Positions 4,334 through 26,290 of a stretch of DNA of 32,000 nt are shown here, piece by piece. A program made the position numbers and the translations under genes. This DNA is from Ideonella sp. (GTDB lineage: Bacteria; Pseudomonadota; Gammaproteobacteria; Burkholderiales; Burkholderiaceae_C). The notes beneath the pieces were generated by a model. It worked only from the letters and a program-made list of their open reading frames with translations. It searched no databases and had not been told where the DNA came from. Position 1 is the first letter of the stretch. Each line of letters opens with the position of its first letter. The stretch covers positions 875,868-907,867 of the forward strand of contig JABTUY010000002.1 of the NCBI GenBank assembly GCA_015075165.1. Direction: 5' to 3'.

Positions 4334-4361
4334 TGGCGCAGCGCCCACGAGGAGCCGCCCG

Positions 4362-8215: not shown

Positions 8216-8998
8216 ATGCCAGCGCTCTACGACTCCCTCGGCGCCACGTATGCACGGACTCGCTGCGCTGACCCAGCCATCGTCGACGCCTTGGCCGGGA
8301 AACTGCGCCTCGCGGCCGCCGGAGCCTATTTGGACTTGGCGTGCGGAACGGGCAACTACACAGTTGCTCTCAGCACGCTGGGTGGGGCCTGGAGCGGGGT
8401 TGACGCATCGGAGGTCATGCTCGCACAAGCCCGCAGCAAGGCCAGCTCAGTCGCTTGGTGTCTGGCGAGTGCCGATTCGCTCCCGTTCGCCGACGCCACG
8501 TTCGACGGTGCGATCTGCACGCTCGCCATCCACCACTTCCCAGCGCTCGAATCCTCATTCGCGGAAATTCGTAGAACGTTGCGCTCCGGGTGCTTCGCCA
8601 TCTTCACAGGGTTGGCCGAGCAGATGCACCGCTACTGGCTCTGCCACTACTTCCCGCAGATGATGGCTCGCTCAATCGAGAAGATGCCATCCGAGTCAGA
8701 GATCCGAGCTGCCCTTTCACGGGCTGGGTTCAGGTCGGTCGCGGTTACCCCGTTCTTCGTCACGCCAAAGCTTCAAGATCTCTTTCTCTACTCGGGCAAG
8801 CATCGGCCCGAGCTGTATCTGGATTCGGCGATTCGCGCAAACATCAGCTCTTTCTCCGGCCTCGCCCCAACCACAGAGCTCCGAGAAGGGCTCGCCCAGT
8901 TGACCGCAGACTTGCAGAGTGGAGCATTCGCTTCCGTCAAGGCTCGCTACTTCAACGAGCTCGGAGACTATGCCTATGTCACTGCGCGAGCGGGCTAG
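8216..8998 (+). CDS. Class I SAM-dependent methyltransferase (Methyltransf_11-like), small-molecule type
   Basis: It starts at ATG 8216. SAM motif I is present (YLDLACGTGNYT), followed by the post-I acidic residue (GVDASEVM) and DGAICTLAIHHF. Many A/T-ending codons set it apart from neighbouring genes. Confidence 0.85.
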   Translation: MPALYDSLGATYARTRCADPAIVDALAGKLRLAAAGAYLDLACGTGNYTVALSTLGGAWSGVDASEVMLAQARSKASSVAWCLASADSLPFADATFDGAICTLAIHHFPALESSFAEIRRTLRSGCFAIFTGLAEQMHRYWLCHYFPQMMARSIEKMPSESEIRAALSRAGFRSVAVTPFFVTPKLQDLFLYSGKHRPELYLDSAIRANISSFSGLAPTTELREGLAQLTADLQSGAFASVKARYFNELGDYAYVTARAG

Positions 8999-9255: not shown

Positions 9256-9710
9256 TCAACCGTGCCCGCAATCCAGCTCGTCGCGGTGGCCGAAGCCGAG
9301 CGAGTTGTCGATCAGGTACAGCCGCCGGGGCCTGAAGCGGTACCAGCTCACCTGCGCCAGCGCCTGCGCGATCGCCGCCGGCGCGCCGCGGCCCACCAGC
9401 GGGAAGCGCTGGCCGTACAGCTCGCGCGCGCGCTCGCGCGCGGCGCCTTGCAGCTCGTTGACCAGGCCCTCGGCCTGCAGGCCGGTGATCTGCGGCCAGT
9501 CGGCGTAGTCGCGCTGGATCGTCACCGCGCAGCGCGCGTCGTGCGCCACGTCCTGCACGTGGCGGCTGCGCGGCTTGGACAGAAAGACCAGGTCGAGCCC
9601 GTCGGGCGCGTAGAACACCGCCGCCGCCCACGGCGCGTGGCCGTGCGTGGCCAGCGTCATCACGTGGTGCTGTTGCAGCAGGCGCTGCACGCGCTCGCGT
9701 AGCGCGGCGT

Positions 9711-9714
<4 letters not shown>
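9256..9714 (-). CDS. YhbP/UPF0306-like split-barrel FMN-binding protein (pyridoxamine 5'-phosphate oxidase superfamily)
   Basis: Only the C-terminal part of track ORF 9256..11190 is credible. The proposed start is TTG at 9714, overlapping the regulator stop (TTGA). The sequence LLQQHHVMTLATHG...RFPLVGRG...LIDNSLGFGHRDEL resembles E. coli YhbP as I recall it (RFPVAR...FTDNTLGFGKK). Confidence 0.65.
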
Positions 9715-11444
<1,730 letters not shown>

Positions 11445-11502
11445 CGGGCGGCTCCTTCGCAACGCGAGTCAGCGTTGTACGCCGGCGCGGGGTGGTCGGG
11501 AC

Positions 11503-11745: not shown

Positions 11746-11761
11746 TGGCACGAACCGTGCA
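11746..11761 (+). promoter_or_regulatory. Sigma54 (-24/-12) promoter of the pps-ppc operon
   Basis: The sequence TGGCAC-GAACC-GTGCA has exact GG-N10-GC spacing. It lies about 68 bp upstream of the ppsA ATG, next to a divergent sigma54 activator gene. Confidence 0.7.
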
Positions 11762-11828
11762 ACAGACACCGGGTACGGCCCGGCCGGGCCCGACGATGCC
11801 GACCCCACACACGAACAGGAGACAGGCG

Positions 11829-13664
11829 ATGAAATTTCCGGTTCCGCACGACGTCAAGGCCAAGACCATTCCCGGTACCGAAGGCTGGGAGCGGATGTAT
11901 CCGTACCAGTATCAATTCGTCACCGACGACGCGGTGCGCAACCAGTACGAGAAGGAGACGTTCTGGTTCTACGACGGGCTGCACTACCCCGAGCCGCTGT
12001 ACCCGTTCGACACCATCTGGGACGAGGCCTGGTACCTCGCGCTGAGCCAGTACAACAACCGCATCTTCATGGTCCCGCCGGTGCGCGGCGTCGACCACCG
12101 CGTGATCAACGGCTACGTCTACATCTCGCCGGTGCCGGTGAAGGACGGCAACGAGATCGGCTCGCGGGTGCCGCACTTCATGGAGCGCGCCGGCCACTAC
12201 TACAAGAACTGGGACGCGCTCGAGGCCAAGTGGAAGGTCAAGATGGAAGCGACCATCCGCGAACTCGAGGCGCTGAAGATCCCGCCGCTGCCCGAGATGG
12301 AAGACAGCCGCGTCGTCACCGAAGCGCTCGGCGAGTCCACCGGCTTTCATCTGCTGAAGGCCTACGACGACCTGATCAACCTCGGCATCAAGTGCTGGCA
12401 GTACCACTTCGAGTTCCTGAACCTGGGCTATGCGGCCTACGTGTTCTTCCTCGACTTCGTGCAGAAGCAGTTCCCGAGCATCCCGGCGCAGCGGGTGACG
12501 CAGATGATCTCGGGCATCGACGTGATCATGTACCAGCCCGACGAGGAGCTGAAGAAGCTCGCGGCGAAGGCGATCGAGCTCGGCGTCGGCGATCTGGTGA
12601 AGTCCAGCCCCGAGTGGGCCAAGGTCGAGGCGTCGCTCAAGGCCGATGGCAAGGGCCGCGAGTGGCTCAGCGCACTGAGCCTGGCCAAGGAGCCGTGGTT
12701 CAACGTCTCCACCGGCACCGGCTGGTTCCACCACGACCGCTCGTGGAACGATCAGATGAACGTGCCGCTGCTCGGCATCCAGACCTACATCGACAAGATC
12801 CGCGCCGGCGTGTCGATCGAGCGGCCGACCGCGAAGGTGCGCGCCGAGCGCGACCGCATCACCGCCGAGTACCGCGACCTGATCACCAACGAGGCCGACC
12901 GCAAGCAGTTCGACGAGCTGCTCGGCTGCGCGAAGACGGTGTTCCCGTACGTCGAGAACCACCTGTTCTACGTGGAGCACTGGTTCCACTCGGTGTTCTG
13001 GAACAAGATGCGCGAGGTGGCGGCGATCCTGAAGACGCACGGCGTGATCGCCGACGTCGAAGACGTCTGGCTGCTGCGCCGCGACGAGATCAAGCAGGCG
13101 CTGTGGGACGTGGTCACCGCCTGGGCCACCGGCGTGACGCCGCGCGGCACCAAGACCTGGCCGCCCGAGATCGAATGGCGCAAGGGCGTGATGGCCAAGT
13201 TCAAGGCCTGGGCGCCGCCGCCGGCGATCGGCACCGCGCCCGAGGTGATCCAGGAGCCGTTCACCATCGTGCTGTGGGGCGTGACGAACAAGTCGCTGGC
13301 CGACTGGGCCGCGGTGCAGGAAGTCGGCGACCCCGACAAGATCTCCGAGCTCAAGGGCTTTGCCGGCAGCCCCGGCATCGTCGAGGGCAAGGCGCGCGTG
13401 TGCCGCACGGTGGCCGAGGTGGGCGAGCTGAAGGAGGGCGAGATCCTGGTCGCGCCCACCACCTCGCCGTCGTGGGCACCGGCGTTCGCCAAGATCGGCG
13501 CCTGCGTCACCGACGTCGGCGGCGTGATGAGCCATGCCGCGATCGTCTGCCGCGAGTACGGCATGCCGGCGGTGGTGGGTACCGGCCACGCCACCAAGGT
13601 GATCAAGAGCGGCATGATGCTGCGCGTCGACGGCTCGACGGGCGCGGTGAGCATCGCGCGCTGA
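11829..13664 (+). CDS. ppsA: Phenylphosphate synthase protein 1 (PEP-synthase-like central/phosphohistidine swivel part), 611 aa, about 70 kDa
   Basis: It starts at ATG 11829 with AGGAG 7 nt upstream, in the frame of track ORF 11757..13664. The PEP-utilising mobile domain carries the phosphohistidine motif GGVMSHAAIVCREYGMPAVVG. Size and order (70, 40 and 24 kDa proteins) match the described Thauera system. Confidence 0.9.
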   Translation: MKFPVPHDVKAKTIPGTEGWERMYPYQYQFVTDDAVRNQYEKETFWFYDGLHYPEPLYPFDTIWDEAWYLALSQYNNRIFMVPPVRGVDHRVINGYVYISPVPVKDGNEIGSRVPHFMERAGHYYKNWDALEAKWKVKMEATIRELEALKIPPLPEMEDSRVVTEALGESTGFHLLKAYDDLINLGIKCWQYHFEFLNLGYAAYVFFLDFVQKQFPSIPAQRVTQMISGIDVIMYQPDEELKKLAAKAIELGVGDLVKSSPEWAKVEASLKADGKGREWLSALSLAKEPWFNVSTGTGWFHHDRSWNDQMNVPLLGIQTYIDKIRAGVSIERPTAKVRAERDRITAEYRDLITNEADRKQFDELLGCAKTVFPYVENHLFYVEHWFHSVFWNKMREVAAILKTHGVIADVEDVWLLRRDEIKQALWDVVTAWATGVTPRGTKTWPPEIEWRKGVMAKFKAWAPPPAIGTAPEVIQEPFTIVLWGVTNKSLADWAAVQEVGDPDKISELKGFAGSPGIVEGKARVCRTVAEVGELKEGEILVAPTTSPSWAPAFAKIGACVTDVGGVMSHAAIVCREYGMPAVVGTGHATKVIKSGMMLRVDGSTGAVSIAR

Positions 13665-13666
13665 TC

Positions 13667-14788
13667 ATGCTGGCGGCCGTGCAGTCGACACCGCAGCGCG
13701 CGGCGCCCGGCGCCGCGCCCACCGTGCGCTGGTTCGAGGACTGCGACAAGTCCTCGTTGCCCGAGGTGGGCGGCAAGTGCGCCTCGCTCGGCGAGCTGAT
13801 CCACGCCCAGGTGCGCGTGCCGCCGGGCTTCGCCGTCACCACGCACGGCTGTACGCGCTTCCTGCGCGAGGCCGGCATCCTGCCGGAGATCGCCGGCCTG
13901 CTGCAGGGCCTGCCGCACGACGACATCGTGCGGCTGGAGCAGGCGTCGGCGGCGATCCGCCAGATGATCGAATCGCGCCCGATGGCCATCGAGCTCGAAG
14001 ACGAGATCGCCGAGGCCTACCGGCGCCTCGCGCTGCGCTGCGGCCTGCCGGCCGCGCCGGTGGCGGTGCGCTCCAGCGCCACCGCCGAAGACCTGCCCGG
14101 CGCCAGCTTCGCGGGCCAGCAGGACACCTTCCTGTGGATCCGCGGCGCCGACGAGCTGCTGCACCACGTGCGGCGCTGCATCTCGAGCCTGTACACCGCG
14201 CGCGCCATCGGCTACCGGCAGAAGATGGGCTTCGATCATGCGCAGGTGGCGATCAGCGTCGGCGTGCAGAAGATGGCCAACGCGTTCACCGCCGGCGTGA
14301 TGTTCACCGTGCACCCGGCCAACGGCGACCGCTCGGTGATCGTGATCGACTCCAACTTCGGCTTCGGCGAGTCGGTGGTGTCGGGCGAGGTCACGCCGGA
14401 TCACTTCGTCGTCAACAAGGTGACGCTCGACATCACCGAGCGCACCATCTCGCGCAAGGAGCGCTGCTACACGGTCGACCTCAAGTCGCAGTGCAGCCGC
14501 GCGATCGACGTGCCGCTCGAGCGCCAGACCGTGCAGTCGCTGATCGACGACGAGATCTGCGAGCTGGCCTGGATGGGCAAGCAGATCGAGAAGCACTACG
14601 GCTGCCCGATGGACATCGAGTGGGCGGTCGACAAGGACGTGCCCTCGGGCGGCAACATCTTCATCCTGCAGGCGCGCCCCGAGACGGTGTGGAGCGCGAA
14701 GGCCAAGGCGGCCAGCGCGGCCCCGGCCGAAACCTCGGCGATGAACTACATCGTGTCGGGCCTGCTGTCGGGCCGCAGGCTCGGCTGA
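13667..14788 (+). CDS. ppsB: Phenylphosphate synthase protein 2 (PEP-synthase N-terminal ATP-grasp/nucleotide-binding part), 373 aa
   Basis: It starts at ATG 13667, 2 nt after the ppsA stop, in the frame of track ORF 11606..14788. PPDK_N-type motifs are present (VGGKCASLGEL, VAVRSSATAEDLPGASFAGQQDT, MDIEWAVD). Confidence 0.9.
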   Translation: MLAAVQSTPQRAAPGAAPTVRWFEDCDKSSLPEVGGKCASLGELIHAQVRVPPGFAVTTHGCTRFLREAGILPEIAGLLQGLPHDDIVRLEQASAAIRQMIESRPMAIELEDEIAEAYRRLALRCGLPAAPVAVRSSATAEDLPGASFAGQQDTFLWIRGADELLHHVRRCISSLYTARAIGYRQKMGFDHAQVAISVGVQKMANAFTAGVMFTVHPANGDRSVIVIDSNFGFGESVVSGEVTPDHFVVNKVTLDITERTISRKERCYTVDLKSQCSRAIDVPLERQTVQSLIDDEICELAWMGKQIEKHYGCPMDIEWAVDKDVPSGGNIFILQARPETVWSAKAKAASAAPAETSAMNYIVSGLLSGRRLG

Positions 14789-14810
14789 CCACGAACAAGG
14801 AGACCGCTGC

Positions 14811-15485
14811 GTGATCGTGCGCAACTGGATGAAGCCGACACCGACCACGGTAACCGGCGACACGCTGCTCAGCGAGGCCAACCAGATCTTCGCCGACAGC
14901 AACTTGCATGGACTGCCGGTGGTCGAGGGCGGCCGGCTGCGCGGGCTGATCACGCGCGCCAACTGCCTGCGCGCGGCGCACCACGTGGCGCGCACGCAGA
15001 GCCCCGACGAGTTCGCCTACTTCTCGAGCCGGCTGCGCGTGCGCGACCTGATGGTGCGCAACCCGGCCACTGTCGACGCCGACGAGACGATGGAGGCCTG
15101 CCTGCAAAAAGGCCAGGAGCTGCGCATCGGCCAGTTCCCGGTGATGAGCCAGGGCGCGGTGGTCGGCATGATCTCGGCCAACGAGGTGTTCGCGATGGCG
15201 GCGCACTTCCTCGGCGCGTTCGAGCGCCGCAGCGGCGTCACGCTGGCGCCGATGGCGCTGGTGCCGGGCGCGATCGGCCGCGTCACCGATGTCGTCGAGG
15301 CCAGCGGCGCCGAAGTGGTGGCGATCTACCCGATCGGCTCGGGCCGCACGCCATCGCCACTGAAGAAGCTGGTCGTGCGCTTTCACGGCGGCTGTGCGCG
15401 CACGGTGAGCGAAGCGCTCGAGCGCGCCGGCTACGCGGTGATCGAGTCGGTCGAAGACGCGCACGCCGTCGCCCGCGCGGCCTGA
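14811..15485 (+). CDS. ppsC: Phenylphosphate synthase stimulating protein 3 (tandem CBS domains plus ACT-like tail), 224 aa
   Basis: It starts at GTG 14811 with AAGGAG 8 nt upstream. Two CBS repeats are visible (VRNWMKPTPTTV...GLPVVEGGRLRGLIT and VRDLMVRNPATV...FPVMSQGAVVGMIS). The 24 kDa size matches protein 3. Confidence 0.85.
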   Translation: MIVRNWMKPTPTTVTGDTLLSEANQIFADSNLHGLPVVEGGRLRGLITRANCLRAAHHVARTQSPDEFAYFSSRLRVRDLMVRNPATVDADETMEACLQKGQELRIGQFPVMSQGAVVGMISANEVFAMAAHFLGAFERRSGVTLAPMALVPGAIGRVTDVVEASGAEVVAIYPIGSGRTPSPLKKLVVRFHGGCARTVSEALERAGYAVIESVEDAHAVARAA

Positions 15486-15535: not shown

Positions 15536-16954
15536 ATGGACCTTCGCAGCTACATCGATCAATGCGCACACGCCGGCGAACTCAAGCGCGTGTCGGCGCC
15601 GGTCGACTGGAACCTGGAAATCTCGCACATCTCCAAGCTGGTCGAGGAGCGCAAGGGCCCGGCACTGCTGTTCGAGAACGTCAAAGGCTACTCGACGCCG
15701 GTGTTCACCGGTGCGTTCGCCACCACCAAGCGGCTGGCGATCATGCTCGGGCTGCCGCACGGCAACACGCTGTGCGAGTCGGCGCAGGCGTGGATGAAGA
15801 AGACGATCACCGCCGAAGGCCTGATCAAGGCCAAGCAGGTCAACGACGGCCCGGTGCTCGAGAACGTGTTCGAGGGCGACAAGGTCAATCTCGAGATGTT
15901 CCCGGTGCCGCGCTTCTTTCCGCTCGACGGCGGGCGCTACATCGGCACCACGGTGTTCGTCGTGCTCAAAGACCCCGAGACCGGCGAGACGAACCTCGGC
16001 ACCTATCGCATGCAGATGCTCGACCACAAGAGCTGCGGCGTGCAGATCCTGCCGGGCAAGCGCGGCGAGCGCATCATGAAGAAGTACGCCAAGCTGGGCA
16101 AGAAGATGCCCGCCGCGGCGGTGATCGGCTGCGACCCGCTGCTGTTCATGGCCGGCACGCTGATGCACAAGGGCGCCAGCGACTTCGACATCACCGGCAC
16201 CGTGCGCGGCCAGCAGGCCGAGTACCTGATGGCGCCGCTCACCGGCCTGCCGGTGCCCGCGGGCGCCGAGATCGTGCTCGAGGGCGAGATCGACCCCACG
16301 GCGTTTCGCCCCGAAGGGCCGTTCGCCGAGTACACCGGCTACTACACCGACGAGCTGCACAAGCCGATTCCGAAGCCGGTGCTCGAGGTCAAGCAGATCC
16401 TGCACCGCAACCAGCCCATCCTGTGGGCCACCGGCCAGGGCCGCCCGGTCACCGACGTGCACATGCTGCTGTCGTTCACGCGCACGGCCACGCTGTGGAC
16501 CGAGCTCGAGAAGATGAAGATCCCGGGCATCCACAACGTCTGCGTGCTGCCTGAGTCGGCCGGCCGCTTCTGGGCCGTGGTGTCGGTCAAGCAGGCCTAC
16601 CCGGGCCACTCGCGCCAGGTGGCCGATGCGGTGATCGGCAGCAACACCGGCAGCTACGGCATCAAGGGCGTGATCACGGTCGACGAGGACATCGCCGCCG
16701 ACGACCTGCAGCGCGTGGTGTGGGCGCTGTCGTGCCGCTACGACCCGATGCGCGGCACCGAGCTGATCAAGCGCGGCCGTTCGACGCCGCTCGACCCCGC
16801 ACTCGACCCCAACGGCGACAAGCTGACCACGTCGCGCATCCTGATGGACGCCTGCATCCCCTACGAGTGGAAGCAAAAACCCGTCGAGTCGCGGCTCGAC
16901 GACGAGACGCTCGCGCGACTGCGCGGCCGCTGGGCCGAGTTCGGCCTCGATTGA
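15536..16954 (+). CDS. ppcB: Phenylphosphate carboxylase UbiD-family subunit, 472 aa (probably beta)
   Basis: UbiD-family motifs are present (NLGTYRMQ, EGPFAEYTGYY). It follows ppsC directly. The alpha/beta assignment is by size only (472 aa versus 484 aa). Confidence 0.85.
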   Translation: MDLRSYIDQCAHAGELKRVSAPVDWNLEISHISKLVEERKGPALLFENVKGYSTPVFTGAFATTKRLAIMLGLPHGNTLCESAQAWMKKTITAEGLIKAKQVNDGPVLENVFEGDKVNLEMFPVPRFFPLDGGRYIGTTVFVVLKDPETGETNLGTYRMQMLDHKSCGVQILPGKRGERIMKKYAKLGKKMPAAAVIGCDPLLFMAGTLMHKGASDFDITGTVRGQQAEYLMAPLTGLPVPAGAEIVLEGEIDPTAFRPEGPFAEYTGYYTDELHKPIPKPVLEVKQILHRNQPILWATGQGRPVTDVHMLLSFTRTATLWTELEKMKIPGIHNVCVLPESAGRFWAVVSVKQAYPGHSRQVADAVIGSNTGSYGIKGVITVDEDIAADDLQRVVWALSCRYDPMRGTELIKRGRSTPLDPALDPNGDKLTTSRILMDACIPYEWKQKPVESRLDDETLARLRGRWAEFGLD

Positions 16955-16961
16955 GCAAACC

Positions 16962-17510
16962 ATGAACGACAAGACCGAACGCGCCGGGCGCACACGCTTC
17001 GCCGAGCTGAGCAAACTGCTGTCCAGCCTGCCGTGCCCCGAGACGCTGCTGTGCGTGCGCGCCGGCGAAGTCACCGACGTCGCCGCGGTGACCACGATGT
17101 GGGTGTCGTACGACCCGGTGATCGTCGCCGTCTACCTGCGCCCGGGCATCCGCACGCACAAGCTGGTCAACGAGGGGCGGCAGTTCACGCTCAACGTCGT
17201 CGACGAGGCGCAAAACCCGCAGGCGCTGCTGGCCGGCTCGCTCAAGGGCGACGACCCCGACAAGCTGAAGAAGCTGGCGCTGCAGTTCGAGCCCGCGGCG
17301 TCGATCGACAGCCCGCGCGTGAGCGGCGCGGCGGCGAGCTACGAATGCCGCGTGCTGAAGGTGGCCGCGTGCGGCGACCACGACCTGTTCCTCGGTCTCG
17401 TCACCGGTTGGAACGTGCGCGACGGCGGCAAGCCGGTGGTGCGCTGGGGCGGACACAGCCACGCCATCGGGGCGACGCTCGAAGCCCCCGCCGTCAAGTA
17501 CCCACATTAG
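16962..17510 (+). CDS. Flavin reductase-like (Flavin_Reduct split-barrel) domain protein, 182 aa
   Basis: It starts at ATG 16962. The family pattern is AAVTTMWVSYDPVIVAVYL...GRQFTLNVV...SPRVSGAAASYECRVLKVAACGDHDLFLGLV, which compares with HpaC-type reductases (...PP.v.v....F.vNvl....P.l.ga.a.leC.....GDH.lf.g.V). Confidence 0.75.
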   Translation: MNDKTERAGRTRFAELSKLLSSLPCPETLLCVRAGEVTDVAAVTTMWVSYDPVIVAVYLRPGIRTHKLVNEGRQFTLNVVDEAQNPQALLAGSLKGDDPDKLKKLALQFEPAASIDSPRVSGAAASYECRVLKVAACGDHDLFLGLVTGWNVRDGGKPVVRWGGHSHAIGATLEAPAVKYPH

Positions 17511-17553
17511 GTCCGGCGGTCACGATCGATTGTCAAGACTCTAGGAGAGGCGG

Positions 17554-18063
17554 ATGGACAAGGCCAAGAACGTGAAGCTGGTGATCCTCGACGTCGACGG
17601 CGTGATGACCGACGGCCGCATCGTCATCGACGACAACGGCGTCGAGCAGCGCAATTTCGACATCAAGGACGGCCTGGGCGTCGTCGCGCTGCAGATGTGC
17701 GGTGTCGACGTGGCGATCATCACGTCGAAGAAGTCGGGCTCGGTGCGCCACCGCGCCGAAGAGCTGAAGATCAAGCGCTTCCACGAGGGCATCAAGAAGA
17801 AGACCGAGCCCTACGAGCAGATGCTCGCCGAGATGGGCATCGGCGATGCGCAGGTGGCCTATGTCGGCGACGACCTGGTCGACCTCTCGTTGATGAAGCG
17901 CGTGGGCTTTCCGGTCGCGGTGGCCGATGCAGTGCCCGAGGTGCGCGCCGCCGCCGCCTACGTGACACAGGCACGCGGCGGCCACGGTGCCGTGCGCGAG
18001 GCCGCCGAGGCGATTCTCAAGGCACAGGGCAAGTGGGACGCCATCCTGGCCAAGATCGGCTGA
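17554..18063 (+). CDS. ppcD: Phenylphosphate carboxylase delta subunit (KdsC-like HAD phosphatase), 169 aa, about 18 kDa
   Basis: It starts at ATG 17554 with AGGAGAGG upstream. HAD motif I is present (LVILDVDGVMTDG), and similarity to KdsC runs throughout (YVGDDLVDLSLMKRVGFPVAVADA, GGHGAVREAAEAIL). Confidence 0.85.
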   Translation: MDKAKNVKLVILDVDGVMTDGRIVIDDNGVEQRNFDIKDGLGVVALQMCGVDVAIITSKKSGSVRHRAEELKIKRFHEGIKKKTEPYEQMLAEMGIGDAQVAYVGDDLVDLSLMKRVGFPVAVADAVPEVRAAAAYVTQARGGHGAVREAAEAILKAQGKWDAILAKIG

Positions 18064-18095
18064 ATCTCTCATCCAACCAACAGGAGCACACGCAA

Positions 18096-19550
18096 GTGGC
18101 CGTACCACCGCGCAGCAACCGCGAGTTCGTCGAAGCCTGCATCGCCTCGGGCGATGCGGTGCGCATCGCACAGCAGGTCGACTGGGACAACGAGGCCGGC
18201 GCCATCGTGCGCCGCGTCTGCGAGCTGGCGGCGCCGGCGCCGTTGATGGAGAGCATCAAGGACTATCCCGGTTTCCGCTACTTCGGCGCGCCGCTGTCCA
18301 CCTACCGCCGCATGGCGATCTCGATGGGGCTTGATCCGAAGACCCCGCTGCCCGAGTTGGGCCGCGAGTACCTCAAGCGCACCAACGGCGAGCCGGTGCA
18401 GCCGGTGCTGGTCGACCGCCGCGCCGCGCCGTGCAAGGAGAACATCCTGCGCGGCAACGATGTCGACCTGTGCCGCCTGCCGGTGCCGCTGGTGCACGAC
18501 GGCGACGGTGGCCGCTACGTCGGCACCTGGCACGCGGTGATCACCAGGCACCCGGTGCGCGGCGACGTCAACTGGGGCATGTACCGCCAGATGATGTACG
18601 ACTCGCGCACGATGTCGGGCGCGGTGTTCCCGTTCTCCGACCTCGGCAAGGCGCTGAACGAGTACTACCTGCCGCGCGGCGAGACCTGTCCGTTTGCCAC
18701 CGCGATCGGCCTGTCGCCGCTGGCGGCGATGGCCGCGTGCGCGCCGTCGCCGATCCCCGAGCCCGAGCTGACCGGCATGCTGGCCGGCGAGCCGGTGAAG
18801 CTGGTGAAGTGCGAGACCAACGACCTCGAGGTGCCGGCCGACGCCGAGATCATCCTCGAGGGCGAGATCCTGCCCGACTACACGGTCGAGGAGGGGCCGT
18901 TCGGCGAGTACACCGGCTACCGCACCAGCCCGCGCTCGCCACGCGTCACGTTCCGCGTCAACTGCATTACCTACCGCAACAACGCGACGATGACGATCTC
19001 CAACATGGGCGTGCCGCAGGACGAAGGGCAGCTGCTGCGCTCGTTCTCGCTCGGCCTGGAGCTCGAGAAGCTGCTGAAGAGCCAGGGCATCCCGGTGACC
19101 GGCGTCTACATGCACCCGCGCTCGACGCACCACATGATGATCGTCGGCGTCAAGCCCACCTACGCCGGCATCGCGATGCAGATCGCGCAGCTCGCGTTCG
19201 GCTCCAAGTTGGGGCCGTGGTTCCACATGGTCATGGTGGTCGACGATCAGACCGACATCTACAACTGGGACGAGGTCTATCACGCGTTCTGCACGCGCTG
19301 CAACCCCGAGCGCGGCATCCACGTGTTCAAGAACACCACCGGCACCGCGCTGTACCCGCACGCCAGCCCGCACGACCGCCAGTACTCGATCGGCTCGCAG
19401 GTGCTGTTCGACTGTCTGTGGCCGGTGGACTGGGACAAGATCAACGACGTGCCGTCGCTGGTGTCGTTCCGCAACGTCTACCCGAAGGCAGTACAGGAGA
19501 AGGTGCTCGCCAACTGGACGAACTACGGCTTCGCGCCCACCACACGCTGA
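18096..19550 (+). CDS. ppcA: Phenylphosphate carboxylase UbiD-family subunit, 484 aa (probably alpha)
   Basis: It starts at GTG 18096 with AGGAG 9 nt upstream, in the frame of track ORF 17697..19550 (the 5' part of that ORF overlaps ppcD out of frame). UbiD motifs are present (NWGMYRQM, EGPFGEYTGYR). Confidence 0.85.
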   Translation: MAVPPRSNREFVEACIASGDAVRIAQQVDWDNEAGAIVRRVCELAAPAPLMESIKDYPGFRYFGAPLSTYRRMAISMGLDPKTPLPELGREYLKRTNGEPVQPVLVDRRAAPCKENILRGNDVDLCRLPVPLVHDGDGGRYVGTWHAVITRHPVRGDVNWGMYRQMMYDSRTMSGAVFPFSDLGKALNEYYLPRGETCPFATAIGLSPLAAMAACAPSPIPEPELTGMLAGEPVKLVKCETNDLEVPADAEIILEGEILPDYTVEEGPFGEYTGYRTSPRSPRVTFRVNCITYRNNATMTISNMGVPQDEGQLLRSFSLGLELEKLLKSQGIPVTGVYMHPRSTHHMMIVGVKPTYAGIAMQIAQLAFGSKLGPWFHMVMVVDDQTDIYNWDEVYHAFCTRCNPERGIHVFKNTTGTALYPHASPHDRQYSIGSQVLFDCLWPVDWDKINDVPSLVSFRNVYPKAVQEKVLANWTNYGFAPTTR

Positions 19551-19567
19551 AGCGAAAGGCATTCACG

Positions 19568-19822
19568 ATGAGCCAATGGGAAGTGTTCGTCACCGACCTC
19601 GCCGAGCTGGCCGAGGGGCGCGACCTGGAGCTGACGATCCGCACGCTCGAGCCGGGTATCCACAAATACACCTACAAGCGCGCCAAGGTGCGTGTCTCGG
19701 CCAAGACCGATGCGCTGCCCGACGGTCTGCAGGTGCGCTTCGGCCGTGGCCAGCTGGCGCCGCAGCGCTACTCGCTCAAGCTGCTCGAGGAGGTCGATCG
19801 CCTGCCGCCCAAGTACCGCTGA
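19568..19822 (+). CDS. ppcC: Small (84 aa, about 10 kDa) protein, candidate phenylphosphate carboxylase gamma subunit
   Basis: It starts at ATG 19568, at the tail of track ORF 18431..19822. Its size and position immediately after the large subunit match the described 10 kDa gamma subunit. I recognise no independent motif. Confidence 0.65.
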   Translation: MSQWEVFVTDLAELAEGRDLELTIRTLEPGIHKYTYKRAKVRVSAKTDALPDGLQVRFGRGQLAPQRYSLKLLEEVDRLPPKYR

Positions 19823-19843
19823 ACGCGACAGGGAGTGCTCGAC

Positions 19844-21193
19844 ATGGCGTGGCGCGACCTGCGGGCGTTTCTCGACGGGCTGGGCAGCGGCCTGCGCCGC
19901 GTGCGCGAGCCGTTCTCGCCGCGCTTCGAGATCGCCGCCGCGCTGCGCGAGGCGCGCGCCGATGCACCGGCGCTGCTGTTCGAGTCGGTCACCGGGCACC
20001 CGGGCTGGCGCGTCTGCGGCAACCTGATCGCCAGCCGCGAGCGGCTGGCGCGCGCGTTCCACACCACGCCGGACCGGCTCGCCGAGGAATACCTGCAACG
20101 CCGCCAGCGCGGCATCGAGCCGATCGGCGCTACGCAGGTGCCGGTGAAAGAGGTCGTGCTGACGCACGCCGACGACCTGCTCGGCACGCTGCCGATCCTC
20201 ACGCACCACGAGCGCGACGGCGCGCCGTACATCACCACCGGTGTCGTGCTGTGCAACGAGCCCGGCAGCGGGCGCCGCGGCATGGGAATCCACCGCATGC
20301 AGGTGCATGGTCCGCGCCGGCTCGGCCTGTTCCTGGCCAACCCGCCGCTGACGCTGTTTCACGCCGCCGCCGAGGCGCGCGGCGAGCCGCTCGAAGTGGC
20401 GGTGGCGCTGGGGCTCGAGCCGGCGCTGGTGGTGGCCGCGGTGTGCAAGGTGGGCCCGCTGGTGCCCGACAAGATGGCGATCGCCGGCGCACTGCGCGGC
20501 GAGCCGGTGCCGCTGATCCGCGGCGAGACGGTGGCGGTGGAGGTGCCCGCACGCGCCGAGGTGGTGATCGAAGGCCGCGTGCTGCCCGGCGTGCGCCAGC
20601 ACGAGGGCCCGTTCGGCGAGAACACCGGCGCCTACTTCAGCGCCGACAGCGCGGTAATCGAGGTCACCGCGGTCACGCACCGGCGCGAGCCGATCTACCC
20701 TGGCCTGACGCCGTGGGCGGCCGATGTCGACATGCTGCTGTGGCTGGCCGCCGGCACCGAGCTGCTCGGCCAGTTGCGCGCGCTGGTGGGCGACGTGGCC
20801 GATCTCGAGCTGGTCGGCGGCACCGCGGGCTTCTCGATGGTGGTGTCGGTGTCGGGTACCTCGCGCTCCGAGGTGAGGCGGCTGATCCACCTGGCGCTCG
20901 CGCTCGACAAGCGGTTGAAATGCGTGACCGTGGTCGACGACGACGTCGACATCCGCAACCCGCGCGAGGTGGCCTGGGCGATGGCCACGCGCCACCGGCC
21001 GCAGCACGACACCATCGTCATCGCCGGCACCGATGCCTACGTGATCGACCCGTCGGCCGCCGGCGCGGGCCAAGGCTCGAAAATCGGCTTCGACGCCACG
21101 CGCGGCGGCGGCGGCGCGGCGTTCGACAAGGCGCGGCTCGAGCCGCAGGCGCTGGCCAAGGCGCGCGCGGTGCTCGGCGAGTCGATGGCGTGA
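19844..21193 (+). CDS. Third UbiD-family (prFMN-dependent decarboxylase/carboxylase) paralog, 449 aa, function unknown
   Basis: It starts at ATG 19844 with GGGAG 8 nt upstream. UbiD motifs are present (GMGIHRMQV, EGPFGENTGAY). It is shorter and more divergent than ppcA/ppcB. Confidence 0.85.
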   Translation: MAWRDLRAFLDGLGSGLRRVREPFSPRFEIAAALREARADAPALLFESVTGHPGWRVCGNLIASRERLARAFHTTPDRLAEEYLQRRQRGIEPIGATQVPVKEVVLTHADDLLGTLPILTHHERDGAPYITTGVVLCNEPGSGRRGMGIHRMQVHGPRRLGLFLANPPLTLFHAAAEARGEPLEVAVALGLEPALVVAAVCKVGPLVPDKMAIAGALRGEPVPLIRGETVAVEVPARAEVVIEGRVLPGVRQHEGPFGENTGAYFSADSAVIEVTAVTHRREPIYPGLTPWAADVDMLLWLAAGTELLGQLRALVGDVADLELVGGTAGFSMVVSVSGTSRSEVRRLIHLALALDKRLKCVTVVDDDVDIRNPREVAWAMATRHRPQHDTIVIAGTDAYVIDPSAAGAGQGSKIGFDATRGGGGAAFDKARLEPQALAKARAVLGESMA

Positions 21194-21252
21194 CATGATG
21201 GCGTGAGGTGCCGGGGCAGCCGGCAGGTCTGACGGTCAACAAGAGGGTGACG

Positions 21253-21840
21253 ATGCGACTCGTGGTCGGAATGTCCGGTGCCAGCGGCGCCATCTATGGC
21301 GTGCGCATCCTCGAGGTGCTGAAGCAGCTGCAAGTCGAGACGCACCTGGTGATGTCCGACTCGGCCAAGCGCACCATCGTCTACGAAACCGATCGCAGCA
21401 TCGACGAGGTGAAGGCGCTCGCCAACCACGTGCACGAGCTGGCCGACGTCGGCGCCTGCATCTCCAGCGGCTCGTTCAAGCACGACGGCATGGTGATCGC
21501 GCCGTGCTCGATCAAGACGCTGTCGGCGCTGGCGCATTCGTTCAACACCAACCTGCTGATCCGCGCCGCCGACGTCACGCTCAAAGAGCGCCGCAAGCTC
21601 GTGTTGATGGTGCGCGAGACGCCGCTGCACCTGGGGCACCTGCGGCTGATGACGCAGGTCACCGAGACCGGCGCCGTACTGGTGCCACCGCTGCCGGCGT
21701 TCTACCACCGGCCGAAGACGCTCGACGACATCATCAACCAGTCGGTCAACAAGGCGCTCGACCAGTTCGGCGTCGATTGCAGCCTGTTCAAGCGCTGGAC
21801 CGGCAACGAAGAGCGCGAGCATGCCCGCTCGCGCGCCTGA
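21253..21840 (+). CDS. ubiX: Flavin prenyltransferase UbiX (prFMN synthase), 195 aa
   Basis: It starts at ATG 21253. The canonical UbiX/Pad1 N-terminus is present (MRLVVGMSGASGAIYGVRILEVL), along with MVIAPCSIKTLSA, LVLMVRETPLH and PAFYHRPKT. Confidence 0.9.
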   Translation: MRLVVGMSGASGAIYGVRILEVLKQLQVETHLVMSDSAKRTIVYETDRSIDEVKALANHVHELADVGACISSGSFKHDGMVIAPCSIKTLSALAHSFNTNLLIRAADVTLKERRKLVLMVRETPLHLGHLRLMTQVTETGAVLVPPLPAFYHRPKTLDDIINQSVNKALDQFGVDCSLFKRWTGNEEREHARSRA

Positions 21841-22282
21841 GCCGCCTGCGGTCGCGTCGCCGCAGGCTGCCTCGTCGCCAGCGGTGCCGGGCGCCGCCGC
21901 CTGTTTCACCGGCGTGGTGTGCAGCGGCCTCGGCGAGGGCGCGCGCTTCGTCGCGATCGACTGGGTGCAGCGCGAGATGCGGCGCGCGCTCGGCTTCGAG
22001 CCGTGGCCCGGCACCTTGAACCTGCGCATGGCCGGCACCGCGTGGCAGCGCTGGCGCCGCGCGCTGGCGCAGCGCCCGGGCATCGTGCTGCACCCGGCGG
22101 CCGGGTTTTGCGCCGCGCGCTGCTTCGCCGTGCGCCTCGACGGGCGCACAGCGGCTGCGGCGGTGATCCCCGACGTCGACGGCTACCCCGACGACAAGCT
22201 CGAACTGGTGGCGCCGCTGGCGCTGCGCGAAGCCCTGAACCTGCGCGACGGCAGCCTGGTCCGCGTCAGCTTCGACCGATGA
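21821..22282 (+). CDS. Archaeal-type CTP-dependent riboflavin kinase (DUF120/RibK) homolog
   Basis: The core GVVCSGLGEGARFVAIDWVQREMRRALGFEPWPGTLNLRM ... ELVAPLALREALNLRDGSLVRVSF is colinear with Methanocaldococcus MJ0056 as I recall it (GEVVSGLGEGRYF...LGFEPYEGTLNLKL...[23 protein letters not shown]). ATG 21821 overlaps the ubiX 3' end by 20 nt. The first 28 aa are low-complexity, so an alternative start at GTG 21884 is possible. Confidence 0.7.
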   Translation: MPARAPEPPAVASPQAASSPAVPGAAACFTGVVCSGLGEGARFVAIDWVQREMRRALGFEPWPGTLNLRMAGTAWQRWRRALAQRPGIVLHPAAGFCAARCFAVRLDGRTAAAAVIPDVDGYPDDKLELVAPLALREALNLRDGSLVRVSFDR

Positions 22283-22498
22283 GAATGAACCACTCCCGCA
22301 GCGCCTTCGGCACCTCCCCCTGCAAGGCGGCACCGTCAGCGGCCCGGCAAAGCCGGGCCTGCTGCTGGAGTCTGCAGGCGCTCAAGCCGTCAACGCCGAC
22401 GCCGGTCGGCTTGGAGCCGCGGCCTTCGCTCCGCGACGGCTCTCGGTTGCACCGGTGCAGGCATCGCGGGTCGCGCGAAGCGCTGTGGAGCAACTGAG

Positions 22499-22978
22499 TT
22501 GTCGTCCGCGCGTCCGGCACCCAGCGCTGGCCTGCCGGCCGCGACGCTGCCGCGGCTGGCCGATGGTGCGCCGGTGCTGCTGCTCAGCGCCGACCGCTGG
22601 GGCCGACCGCACGCCACCTACTCGTGGGCGGTGGCGCTCGCGCCGCGGCGGCTGTGCATCGCGGTCGACCGCGGCGGGCGCACCAGCGCCAACTGGCTGC
22701 GCAGCGGGCAGGCGGCGGTGCAGGTGATCGGCGCCGGCGGCTCGAACCTGCTGATCGGCGGCCGCGCCGTGCGTCTGCCGTGGACGCCGGTCTGCGCGCC
22801 GACGATGGAAGCCTGGCAGCTCGCGGTGCGTACCGTGCTCGACCAGGCCTGGCCGGGGGTGGTCACCAGCGCGCTGCGTTACCGCGGCAGCGGCGCTGGC
22901 GGCGCGGCGGCGCTGCGCCGCTTCGAGCGCGCGCTGTGCCGCGAGCTGCGCGACACCCCTGGCGTGGCCCGGGTTTGA
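22499..22978 (+). CDS. Hypothetical protein, 159 aa, with weak resemblance to PNPOx-like split-barrel proteins
   Basis: It starts at TTG 22499 with GGAG 8 nt upstream. It shows the strong GC3 bias typical of host genes. The pattern PVLLLSADRWGRPHATYSWAV...RLCIAVDRGGRTSANWLRSGQAAVQVIG resembles the N-terminal strands of PNPOx-family proteins. No firm motif is present. Confidence 0.45.
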   Translation: MSSARPAPSAGLPAATLPRLADGAPVLLLSADRWGRPHATYSWAVALAPRRLCIAVDRGGRTSANWLRSGQAAVQVIGAGGSNLLIGGRAVRLPWTPVCAPTMEAWQLAVRTVLDQAWPGVVTSALRYRGSGAGGAAALRRFERALCRELRDTPGVARV

Positions 22979-25485: not shown

Positions 25486-25749
25486 GTGAACACCCGCCGC
25501 TGGACCGACGCAGAAGCCGAGCACATCGACGTGCGCGGCCTCTCGCCGCCGCAACCGCTGGTGGAGATCGTGCGCCTGCTCGAGGAGATCACGGCGTCGA
25601 AGCGGCCGCGGGTGGTGATCGCGCACCTCGATCGCGACCCGACGATGCTGTACCCCGAGCTCGCGCAGCGCGGCTGGACGGCGCAGCGCCTGCCGTCGGC
25701 CGACGAGGGTGTACAGCTGCGGCTGGTGCACGAAGGCGCCGACGAATGA
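25486..25749 (+). CDS. DUF2249-like small protein (TusA/SirA-like fold), 87 aa
   Basis: It starts at GTG 25486 with AGGAG 8 nt upstream; only the 3' end of track ORF 24931..25749 is credible. The pattern IDVRGLSPPQPLVEIVRLLEEI...VVIAHLDRDPTMLYPELAQRGW fits the DUF2249 signature (D.RGL.PP.P...). Confidence 0.65.
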   Translation: MNTRRWTDAEAEHIDVRGLSPPQPLVEIVRLLEEITASKRPRVVIAHLDRDPTMLYPELAQRGWTAQRLPSADEGVQLRLVHEGADE

Positions 25750-25798
25750 TCTCGCGCCGACTTCCCATTCGATGACGACCGAACTGAGGGCCAACGCC

Positions 25799-26290
25799 AT
25801 GGACTACACACTGCCGCTGTTCCTCGCCCATGCCATCGCGCTCGAGCGCGAGGCGGCCGAGCGCTACCACGAACTGGCCGACATGATGGAGGCGCATCGC
25901 AACGACGAGGTAGCCGCGCTGTTCCGCGACATGGTGCGCTACTCGCGTCTGCACCACGACTCGATCGTCGAGCGCGCGGCCGGCGTCACGCTGCCTTCGC
26001 TGGGCCCCTGGGACTACGCCTGGCGCTACCCGCCCGAGGCGGCGGGCGAGGAGACGTTCGACCCCGCGCTCAACGCCTACGACGCGCTGCGCTACGCGCG
26101 CGAGAACGAGGCGCGTGCGATGCAGTACTACAGCGACGTCGGCCTCAACTCGAGCGACCCCGAGGTGCGGCGCCTGGCCGCCGAATTCGCCGCCGAGGAG
26201 ACCGAGCACGTCGCCGCGGTCGACGATTGGTTGTCGCGCACCGCGCGGCCGGCGGCGCCGTGGGCCGCCGACCCGCATGTCGACCGCTAG
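25799..26290 (+). CDS. Ferritin-like/rubrerythrin-like four-helix-bundle protein, 163 aa
   Basis: It starts at ATG 25799 with GAGGG 8 nt upstream. Helix signatures are ALEREAAERYHEL, RENEARAMQYY and AEETEHVAAV (ExxH). The second-helix ExxH appears degenerate (VRYSRLHH). Confidence 0.7.
   Translation: MDYTLPLFLAHAIALEREAAERYHELADMMEAHRNDEVAALFRDMVRYSRLHHDSIVERAAGVTLPSLGPWDYAWRYPPEAAGEETFDPALNAYDALRYARENEARAMQYYSDVGLNSSDPEVRRLAAEFAAEETEHVAAVDDWLSRTARPAAPWAADPHVDR

Follow-up and report, generated by a model that had tools for sequence, protein, structure and literature searches.

Introduction

Phenylphosphate carboxylase (PpcABCD) is defined by the carboxylation of phenylphosphate to 4-hydroxybenzoate, and the UbiD carboxylases of anaerobes (for phenol, benzene, naphthalene and phthalate) are difficult to obtain in active form. 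The clusters of Thauera aromatica and Aromatoleum present one gene order: a regulator and a YhbP-like gene, both on the minus strand, followed by ppsABC, ppcB, ppcD, ppcA, ppcC, a UbiD paralog, UbiX and DUF120. The original Thauera paper is said to have listed a MutT-like open reading frame (ORF) and several ORFs without similarity. Here we analyse a stretch of 32,000 nucleotides from a metagenome-assembled genome (MAG) of Ideonella sp. (contig JABTUY010000002.1, positions 875,868 to 907,867; hereafter the window, in whose coordinates its features are given). It shares this order, and in it the carboxylase genes stand among accessory genes that may provide flavin mononucleotide (FMN) and its prenylated form (prFMN), the cofactor of UbiD enzymes.

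In vitro, prFMN is synthesised from FMN, dimethylallyl monophosphate (DMAP), NADH, the flavin reductase Fre and UbiX. The E. coli Nudix hydrolases NudJ, NudF and NudB convert dimethylallyl diphosphate (DMAPP) to DMAP for UbiX (PMC12359138). The split-barrel protein PhdC of Mycolicibacterium fortuitum is encoded together with the UbiD enzyme PhdA and the UbiX protein PhdB, and it uses O2 to turn the prFMN radical into the active iminium; with oxygen strictly excluded, ferricyanide can serve as oxidant and NAD+ cannot (PMC13040415). A preliminary description of the window, made from its letters alone, had taken prFMN oxidation to be explained only with O2, a premise that anoxic maturation by PhdC has made outdated. 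A distant homolog of PhdC, YclD, activates E. coli UbiD, and the same authors call it unclear which oxidant serves strict anaerobes physiologically (PMC13040415). In the gallate decarboxylase system of Lactobacillus, the prFMNH2-binding chaperone LpdD, co-transcribed with UbiX and related in fold to proteasome-assembly chaperones, helps activate UbiD (PMC10865409). Accessory proteins for prFMN (PhdC, YclD and LpdD), including a split-barrel maturase, were already established in 2024-25.

Results

Accessory genes of the Ideonella ppc operon

Genes were called from codon-position GC content together with Pfam and NCBIfam scans; the window has a G+C content of ~70%, and G+C at third codon positions (GC3) is 0.84-0.95 in the named genes. 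By its gene content, the region encodes the phenylphosphate carboxylase of anaerobic phenol degradation, as the operon ppcBDAC: all four PpcABCD subunit types, the UbiD-like alpha and beta, the gamma and the KdsC-like HAD delta, are encoded in the window, accompanied by ppsABC and a sigma-54 DmpR-type regulator. A class I flavin-reductase/flavoredoxin-type protein is encoded between ppcB and ppcD (16962-17510, plus strand; PF01613 E 5e-21). Downstream of ppcC, and on the same strand, follow a third UbiD paralog, here called UbiD3 (19835-21193), the flavin prenyltransferase UbiX (21253-21840) and a DUF120 protein homologous to archaeal-type CTP-dependent riboflavin kinase (RibK) (21821-22282; PF01982 E 1.4e-29), whose gene overlaps ubiX by 20 nt. 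Beyond these is an ORF for a PNPOx-like split-barrel protein (22499-22978, plus strand), which we call family B. A YhbP-like PNPOx split-barrel protein, family A, is encoded beside the regulator on the minus strand (9256-9714). The DUF120, flavin reductase and 22499 proteins each match a protein of an 'Ideonella sp.' MAG in NCBI at 100% identity.

These are largely the genes that the preliminary description had named, and they exist at or near the positions it gave them. Its tightly spaced plus-strand string from ppcB to the 22499 ORF is real, with intergenic gaps of -20 to +50 nt from ppcB through DUF120 and no terminator found on the plus strand between DUF120 and the 22499 gene. The flavin-reductase-like gene between ppcB and ppcD and the RibK-like gene overlapping ubiX also stood up, and profile searches placed the accessory ORFs in flavin-handling families, as it had proposed. 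Searches for an FMN riboswitch or other RNA element in the window found none.

Conservation across ppc loci

A PpcB scan with one genome per species gave 80 loci, onto every one of which the window proteins were mapped. The loci come from Burkholderiales MAGs, many Rhodocyclales (Thauera aromatica LG356 and eight species of Aromatoleum among them), Sulfuritalea and a single MAG of Desulfovibrio; the 55 loci called informative below are those with enough sequence. In 54 of these 55 the DUF120 gene is the next one after ubiX, and in the 55th it lies elsewhere in the same cluster; a position elsewhere in the cluster is what the Desulfovibrio MAG (L075) has. Family A adjoins the regulator in 55/59 loci, 41 of 55 informative loci have the conserved ~150-residue family B ORF, which is widespread in Rhodocyclales, and UbiD3 was found in every locus of sufficient length.

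The content of the canonical Thauera cluster was taken directly from the DNA of T. aromatica LG356 (locus L038), to whose proteins those of the window are 47-88% identical. T. aromatica and all Aromatoleum loci carry both DUF120 (L038 15755-16258 in T. aromatica; PF01982 E 1e-26) and the YhbP-like gene. The preliminary description had taken the canonical cluster to be free of such extras; this is wrong for two of the four, DUF120 and the YhbP-like gene, both of which T. aromatica has. The reductase gene occurs in 12/76 loci, all of them Burkholderiales (Rubrivivax, Ideonella, Ottowia and Azohydromonas type), and is the sole lineage-specific element of the gene set; the gap between ppcB and ppcD is 13-161 nt in the loci without it. 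In Rhodocyclales clusters, 37 of 55 loci, the gene immediately after DUF120 encodes a Nudix protein with an N-terminal zinc ribbon (L038 16297-16845 in T. aromatica); this gene is absent from the window and from every flavin-reductase locus, a mutual exclusion that may simply reflect phylogeny. The module is mostly a conserved general feature of known ppc clusters and is not peculiar to the window, and we infer that a conserved cofactor-provision tail is attached to ppcBDAC across ppc clusters.

Rearranged clusters and gene fusions

In more distant ppc clusters, DUF120 homologs with 43-52% identity are again encoded directly after UbiX. Three loci (L081, L083 and L084) retain the UbiX-DUF120 pair with the PNPOx genes in differing places: the family A gene is antisense after the CoA ligase in L081, and in L083 it has a 4-nt overlap with a fourth UbiD paralog. 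Homologs of the flavin reductase with ~70% identity are found in Deferrisomatales MAGs, where they lie after ppsA/ppsB-like genes and before a DUF120::HAD fusion, and this pair adjoins genes for a ligase, a porin and 4-hydroxybenzoyl-CoA reductase.

DUF120 was searched against 1.8 billion representative proteins, and multidomain matches were then domain-scanned for fusions. Both split-barrel families are found joined to DUF120: family B::DUF120 in P0189 (family B profile E 6e-44), DUF120::family A in P0193 (E 8e-71) and P0205, and the reverse order, family A::DUF120, in P0235. On contig L093, a family B::DUF120 fusion is followed, with a 4-nt overlap, by a family A gene. Further fusions are FMN_dh::DUF120, one with an MFS transporter and, very often and in both orders, fusions with HAD phosphatases; the carriers of DUF120 fusions also include P0124, P0241, L087 (10619-11671), L092 and L093. 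The fusions tie the kinase homolog to both split-barrel families and to flavin chemistry. By conserved synteny, survival of the linkage through rearrangement and the fusions, these genes are associated with ubiX/ubiD and ppc much more strongly than chance would allow, an association that the preliminary description had suggested testing.

The DUF120 protein

The DUF120 protein scores 102.9 bits against PF01982 (cutoff 25) over profile positions 1-120 of 121, and it aligns over its full length to the solved archaeal RibK MJ0056 (2p3m; E 4e-12), with the SGLGEG, GTLN and LExxAP motifs retained. Residues G36, G38, E39, G64, T65, N67, E128, A131, P132 and R136 each recur in 44 or more of the 47 members of the subfamily, and MJ0056 has the same residue at every one of these positions; we take them to have the functional roles that the MJ0056 structure paper gives to their counterparts. 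The protein is probably an active kinase, though riboflavin may not be its substrate. In the literature that could be searched, no paper was found connecting riboflavin kinase or DUF120 to UbiX, UbiD or prFMN.

Two families of PNPOx-like split-barrel proteins

On its own, the product of ORF 22499-22978 matches PNPOx_N at E 0.0065, below threshold. We regard the ORF as a real gene because its GC3 is 0.91, because it is conserved in the loci counted above, and because several of its homologs carry PF01243; what had been put forward as a possible PNPOx ORF is genuine. Structures were modelled with AlphaFold, and fold neighbours were ranked with Foldseek against solved structures. The family B model (pLDDT 87.5, pTM 0.84) is an FMN-binding split barrel. 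Its first-ranked neighbour is 2q9k (Exiguobacterium sibiricum exig_1997; TM-score 0.74-0.79), an uncharacterised 'putative oxidoreductase' that is also among the weak matches of the family B profile, and its second is the PhdC entry 9nk4 (E 7e-6, TM-score 0.63-0.65). Eight PhdC entries (9nk4, 9nk1, 9o5m, 9nk3, 9nk2, 9srg, 9nk0 and 9srj) are among the top 25. The family B profile likewise has PhdC entries 9nk3, 9srg and 9nk0 within its top four PDB matches, weakly (E 0.11-0.69). Like PhdC, family B is encoded together with UbiD and UbiX. Its invariant acidic residues are D57, D115 and E143. In the window protein and its closest relative, P0049, a near-invariant Trp-Pro (RYRWP, ~130-136) is replaced by Gly-Ser or Gly-Thr, with a one-residue insertion.

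The family A protein matches PNPOx_N at E 1.6e-9 and the YhbP model NF002900 at E 3e-17, the latter below cutoff. Its TTG start overlaps the stop codon of the regulator gene (TTGA), and by this overlap the gene is translationally coupled to the regulator, as the preliminary description had noticed. Families A and B are treated separately because a profile-profile comparison between them was non-significant (probability 0.8%). WD40-repeat PDB matches obtained with the single sequences of the 22499 and YhbP-like proteins were set aside as an artefact of summed weak repeat matches. No paper tying PNPOx-like proteins of family A or B to UbiX/UbiD or to a ppc cluster was found in the literature that could be searched.

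The flavin reductase

The protein encoded between ppcB and ppcD scores 75.7 bits against PF01613 Flavin_Reduct (cutoff 27). Its nearest solved structure is the FMN-binding protein PH0856, both by sequence (E 6e-17) and by fold (E 6e-14), and further matches are flavoredoxin and the reductases SMOB, PheA2 and ThdF. The model has a pLDDT of 87.6, and its top Foldseek matches are FMN-binding proteins and flavin reductases. LPCP, MWVSYDPVI, CG[DT]HDLFLG and a C-terminal YPH are invariant motifs. The reductases linked to ppc have invariant cysteines at C25, C129 and C137, and Tyr-Pro-His forms their very C-terminus; in the Deferrisomatales homologs, Thr takes the place of Asp in the GDH motif. We considered this protein as a maturase of the PhdC type and rejected the assignment: no PhdC entry is in its top 50 Foldseek matches, MWVSYDPVI and CGDHDLFLG are present, and PH0856 and flavoredoxin are closest.

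UbiD paralogs and UbiX

PpcB (NLGTYRMQ, EGPFAE), PpcA (NWGMYRQM, EGPFGE) and UbiD3 (GMGIHRMQ, EGPFGE) all have the E(D)-R-E network, that is, the Arg and E-x4-E, and it is conserved across 55-76 orthologs of each, which substantiates what the first reading of the DNA had said of the three paralogs. UbiD3 is a generic UbiD protein by profile (TIGR00148, 276 bits), and its best solved-structure match is HmfF (6h6x; E 4e-77). By sequence, it is a non-Ppc subunit type, closest to HmfF-like decarboxylases. The residue five before the catalytic Arg is Gly in 55/55 UbiD3 orthologs and Asn in PpcA, PpcB and HmfF. UbiD enzymes hold the prFMN phosphate through Mn2+ and K+, and in AnFdc1 this Asn is probably a ligand of the Mn2+; if so, UbiD3 may have another way of binding the cofactor and could serve as carrier or scaffold instead of decarboxylase. 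UbiX is placed well above the cutoffs of its models (NF004685, 269 bits against 188; TIGR00421, 251 against 109), and its ATG start is preceded by an AAGAGG ribosome-binding site.

The phenol operon and its surroundings

The carboxylase genes are all on the plus strand. PpcB, the UbiD-family beta subunit (15536-16954), scores 1004 bits against TIGR02724 (cutoff 469); PpcD, the KdsC-like HAD phosphatase delta subunit (17554-18063), 312 bits against TIGR02726 (cutoff 282); and PpcA, the UbiD-family alpha subunit (18096-19550), 1051 bits against TIGR02723, above cutoff. The start of ppcA was refined to a GTG preceded by an AGGAG ribosome-binding site. The gamma subunit gene ppcC (19568-19822), which was missing from the preliminary gene list, matches PF09662 Phenyl_P_gamma at E 4.5e-38 and scores 123 bits against TIGR02725, slightly below the cutoff of 135.6. 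A literature search on ppcC and ppcD returned only papers on Geobacter cytochromes.

Phenylphosphate synthase is encoded upstream, at the head of the same closely spaced plus-strand string, by ppsA (11757-13664; NF006152, 1222 bits, with a PEP-utilizing domain), ppsB (13777-14814) and ppsC (14811-15485; a CBS pair), whose products share 47-94% identity with those of the Thauera, Aromatoleum and other loci, where the genes stand in the same order. The PpsB-like protein of L083 carries a fused HAD domain. A sigma-54 -24/-12-like sequence at 11746-11760, TGGCACGAACCGTGC, has one mismatch and overlaps the first candidate start codon of ppsA, so the true start may be further downstream; in the window as a whole, the sigma-54 promoter pattern has 2 matches with 3 expected by chance, which is non-significant. 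The regulator itself (9711-11462, minus strand) is a sigma-54-dependent activator of XylR/DmpR type with XylR_N, V4R, Sigma54_activat and HTH_8 domains, and it is conserved and divergently transcribed in related loci.

Domain scans of the flanks found, at 45-1001, the last part of a molybdopterin protein resembling 4-hydroxybenzoyl-CoA reductase and, at 1994-4333, an FeS/FAD oxidoreductase. Next comes an aromatic acid-CoA ligase (4323-6497), in which ~230 N-terminal residues form a ferritin/rubrerythrin-like domain. Between ~7000 and ~9000, G+C falls to 0.63-0.65 from ~0.70 in the flanks and coding signals are weak or ambiguous; a class I methyltransferase gene (8216-8998) lies inside this low-G+C stretch, which may have been inserted between the ligase gene and the regulator block. 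Downstream of ORF 22499-22978 are enoyl-CoA hydratase and short-chain dehydrogenase/reductase (SDR) genes and, downstream of the cluster, a separate rubrerythrin-like ORF (25709-26290).

Discussion

On balance, the accessory genes seem to serve the provision of flavin and prFMN for the carboxylase, and we hold each individual role with less confidence than the whole. In such a scheme, the DUF120 kinase would form FMN from riboflavin locally, its gene being translationally coupled to ubiX; the PF01613 reductase, where present, would turn FMN into FMNH2 with NAD(P)H, the job that Fre does in vitro; and UbiX would form prFMNH2 by prenylating FMNH2 with DMAP. In Rhodocyclales, this DMAP would be delivered by the Nudix enzyme encoded at the cluster, for which a role as DMAPP-to-DMAP supplier is plausible by analogy with the E. 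coli enzymes; Ideonella would use an enzyme encoded elsewhere in its genome. Both PNPOx-like split barrels would bind flavin or prFMN, and family B at least may be a maturase or chaperone like PhdC and YclD, bringing active prFMN to PpcA, PpcB and UbiD3 without O2. A bolder version, which we offer only tentatively, is that of a dedicated O2-independent prFMN route: a ppc-specific RibK-like kinase would work in physical association with two PNPOx-like proteins, to which some organisms have it fused, family B would do under anoxia what PhdC does and oxidise prFMNH2 with a physiological acceptor other than O2, and the reductase or the Asn-less UbiD3 would serve as electron relay or maturation scaffold. 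If this were true, the accessory genes would encode the activation factors that are still missing from the picture of oxygen-sensitive UbiD carboxylases.

A number of observations weigh against prFMN provision as we describe it. The genes of the window include no DMAP source and no obvious oxidant, and 'self-contained', the term of the preliminary description for a module without a DMAP-supplying gene or an identifiable electron acceptor, is too strong; its interpretation is partly supported. A related carboxylase of D. anilini is reported to be active with plain FMN (PMC7500099). In PhdC the catalytic residues are Glu47 and Glu136; in family B, Arg or Lys stands opposite the probable Glu47, in an alignment that is short and weak. 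The nearest relatives of family A are Rv2991 and the HutZ-type heme-binding and F420-binding PNPOx proteins, PhdC being less alike. The DUF120 protein falls below the NCBIfam equivalog cutoffs for RibK (59.5 bits against 168 for NF040694; 78.8 against 279 for NF010762), and its subfamily has specific invariants of its own (W48, W75, C97, C101, Y122-P123 and K126); scores and invariants together mean that its substrate may not be riboflavin. The reductase and DUF120 genes of Deferrisomatales adjoin pps genes and not ubiX. Finally, most of the 80 loci are closely related (PpcB at least 84% identical), so the synteny counts represent non-independent events. The rearranged distant clusters and the fusions are evidence of linkage that is free of this last weakness.

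The contiguity of the tail, which forms one block downstream of ppcC in all loci, also fits a fairly unlikely alternative in which UbiD3, UbiX, DUF120, family B and, where present, Nudix make up a separate decarboxylase system centred on UbiD3, for example a hydroxyarylic-acid decarboxylase, with the accessory proteins as its subunits or helpers and not as suppliers of Ppc. UbiD3 is of non-Ppc type and nearest to HmfF- and VdcC-like decarboxylases, the family A gene of L083 overlaps a further UbiD paralog, and VdcBCD, LpdBCD and PhdABC carry small partner proteins. However, the block never stands apart from ppcBDAC in the loci examined, the cluster encodes no other UbiX for PpcA and PpcB, and the Deferrisomatales reductase and DUF120 genes are found with pps genes, away from any UbiD3-UbiX block; a separate UbiD3 system would, moreover, still imply a role in prFMN handling.

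The kinase could instead act on another substrate, either prenol (dimethylallyl alcohol), giving DMAP, or a dephosphorylated prenylated flavin in a salvage reaction, with the split barrels handling the product. Its invariant residues absent from archaeal RibK, its sub-cutoff scores, the lack of Nudix or another DMAP source in the window and the tight coupling of its gene to ubiX would all suit such a substrate, yet DUF120 and Nudix occur together in 37 loci and are therefore not alternatives to each other, the fusions to FMN_dh and to FMN-binding split barrels indicate a flavin substrate, and the protein has kept its nucleotide and phosphate motifs and aligns to RibK as a whole; we consider this unlikely. 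We give little credence to general support or stress protection without a link to prFMN, in which the genes, passengers in the phenol regulon, would supply FMN or FAD for other flavoenzymes, reduce quinones or nitro compounds, or handle heme. The heme-binding or F420-type PNPOx proteins nearest to family A among solved structures speak for it, as do the flavoredoxins and nitroreductases within PF01613 and the nearby redox genes, among them those of the 4-hydroxybenzoyl-CoA reductase-like molybdenum cofactor protein and the FeS/FAD oxidoreductase, but it leaves unexplained why DUF120 overlaps ubiX in almost all loci, why it occurs fused to either PNPOx family, and why family B has a PhdC-like predicted fold.

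If flavin and prFMN provision for the carboxylase is indeed what these genes do, they could allow better heterologous activation of CO2-fixing UbiD enzymes and would give roles to ORFs that apparently had none before. What appears to be new is the specific set of candidates for anaerobic conditions and the evidence, from fusions and folds, that joins them. These testable candidates are a RibK-like kinase, two PNPOx-like families, one of them with a PhdC-like predicted fold, a Nudix hydrolase and a flavin reductase. Most of them are also present in Thauera and Aromatoleum, which are genetically tractable model organisms, apparently without an assigned role so far.

Comparison with known systems

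Relative to the clusters of T. aromatica and Aromatoleum, the window adds the flavin reductase between ppcB and ppcD and is without Nudix after DUF120; it also has family B, which was undetected in T. aromatica LG356. The E. coli Nudix hydrolases have no equivalent in the window, whereas Rhodocyclales have the Nudix gene with its predicted DMAP role directly after DUF120. LpdD has a different fold from the proteins discussed here, and an LpdD-like gene was not seen in the window. Among described accessory proteins, PhdC (phdABC; PDB 9SRG, 9NK0-4 and 9O5M) is the one to compare with family B: both are small split barrels encoded with UbiD and UbiX, with TM-scores of 0.57-0.65 over the full length. 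They differ in that identity is 18-20%, and in that the window has two unrelated PNPOx-like families and a putative kinase. The homologs of PhdC found by BLAST are all from Actinomycetota.

The class I reductases HpaC, PheA2 and SMOB share the PF01613 fold and motifs of the S-x-x-P and G-D-H type with the window protein, and Fre of E. coli, which provides UbiX with FMNH2 in vitro, is of another family. The subfamily of the window protein is unlike all four in its three invariant cysteines and C-terminal YPH, and its relatives are 'FMN-binding proteins' and flavoredoxins. MJ0056 RibK (PDB 2P3M and 2VBU) has PF01982 in common with the window DUF120 protein and shares the residues that are G14, G16, E17, G42, T43, N45, E107, A110, P111 and R115 in its own numbering. 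Unlike archaeal RibK, the window protein belongs to a bacterial subfamily with its own invariant Trp, Cys and Tyr-Pro residues, one that is dedicated to ppc clusters.

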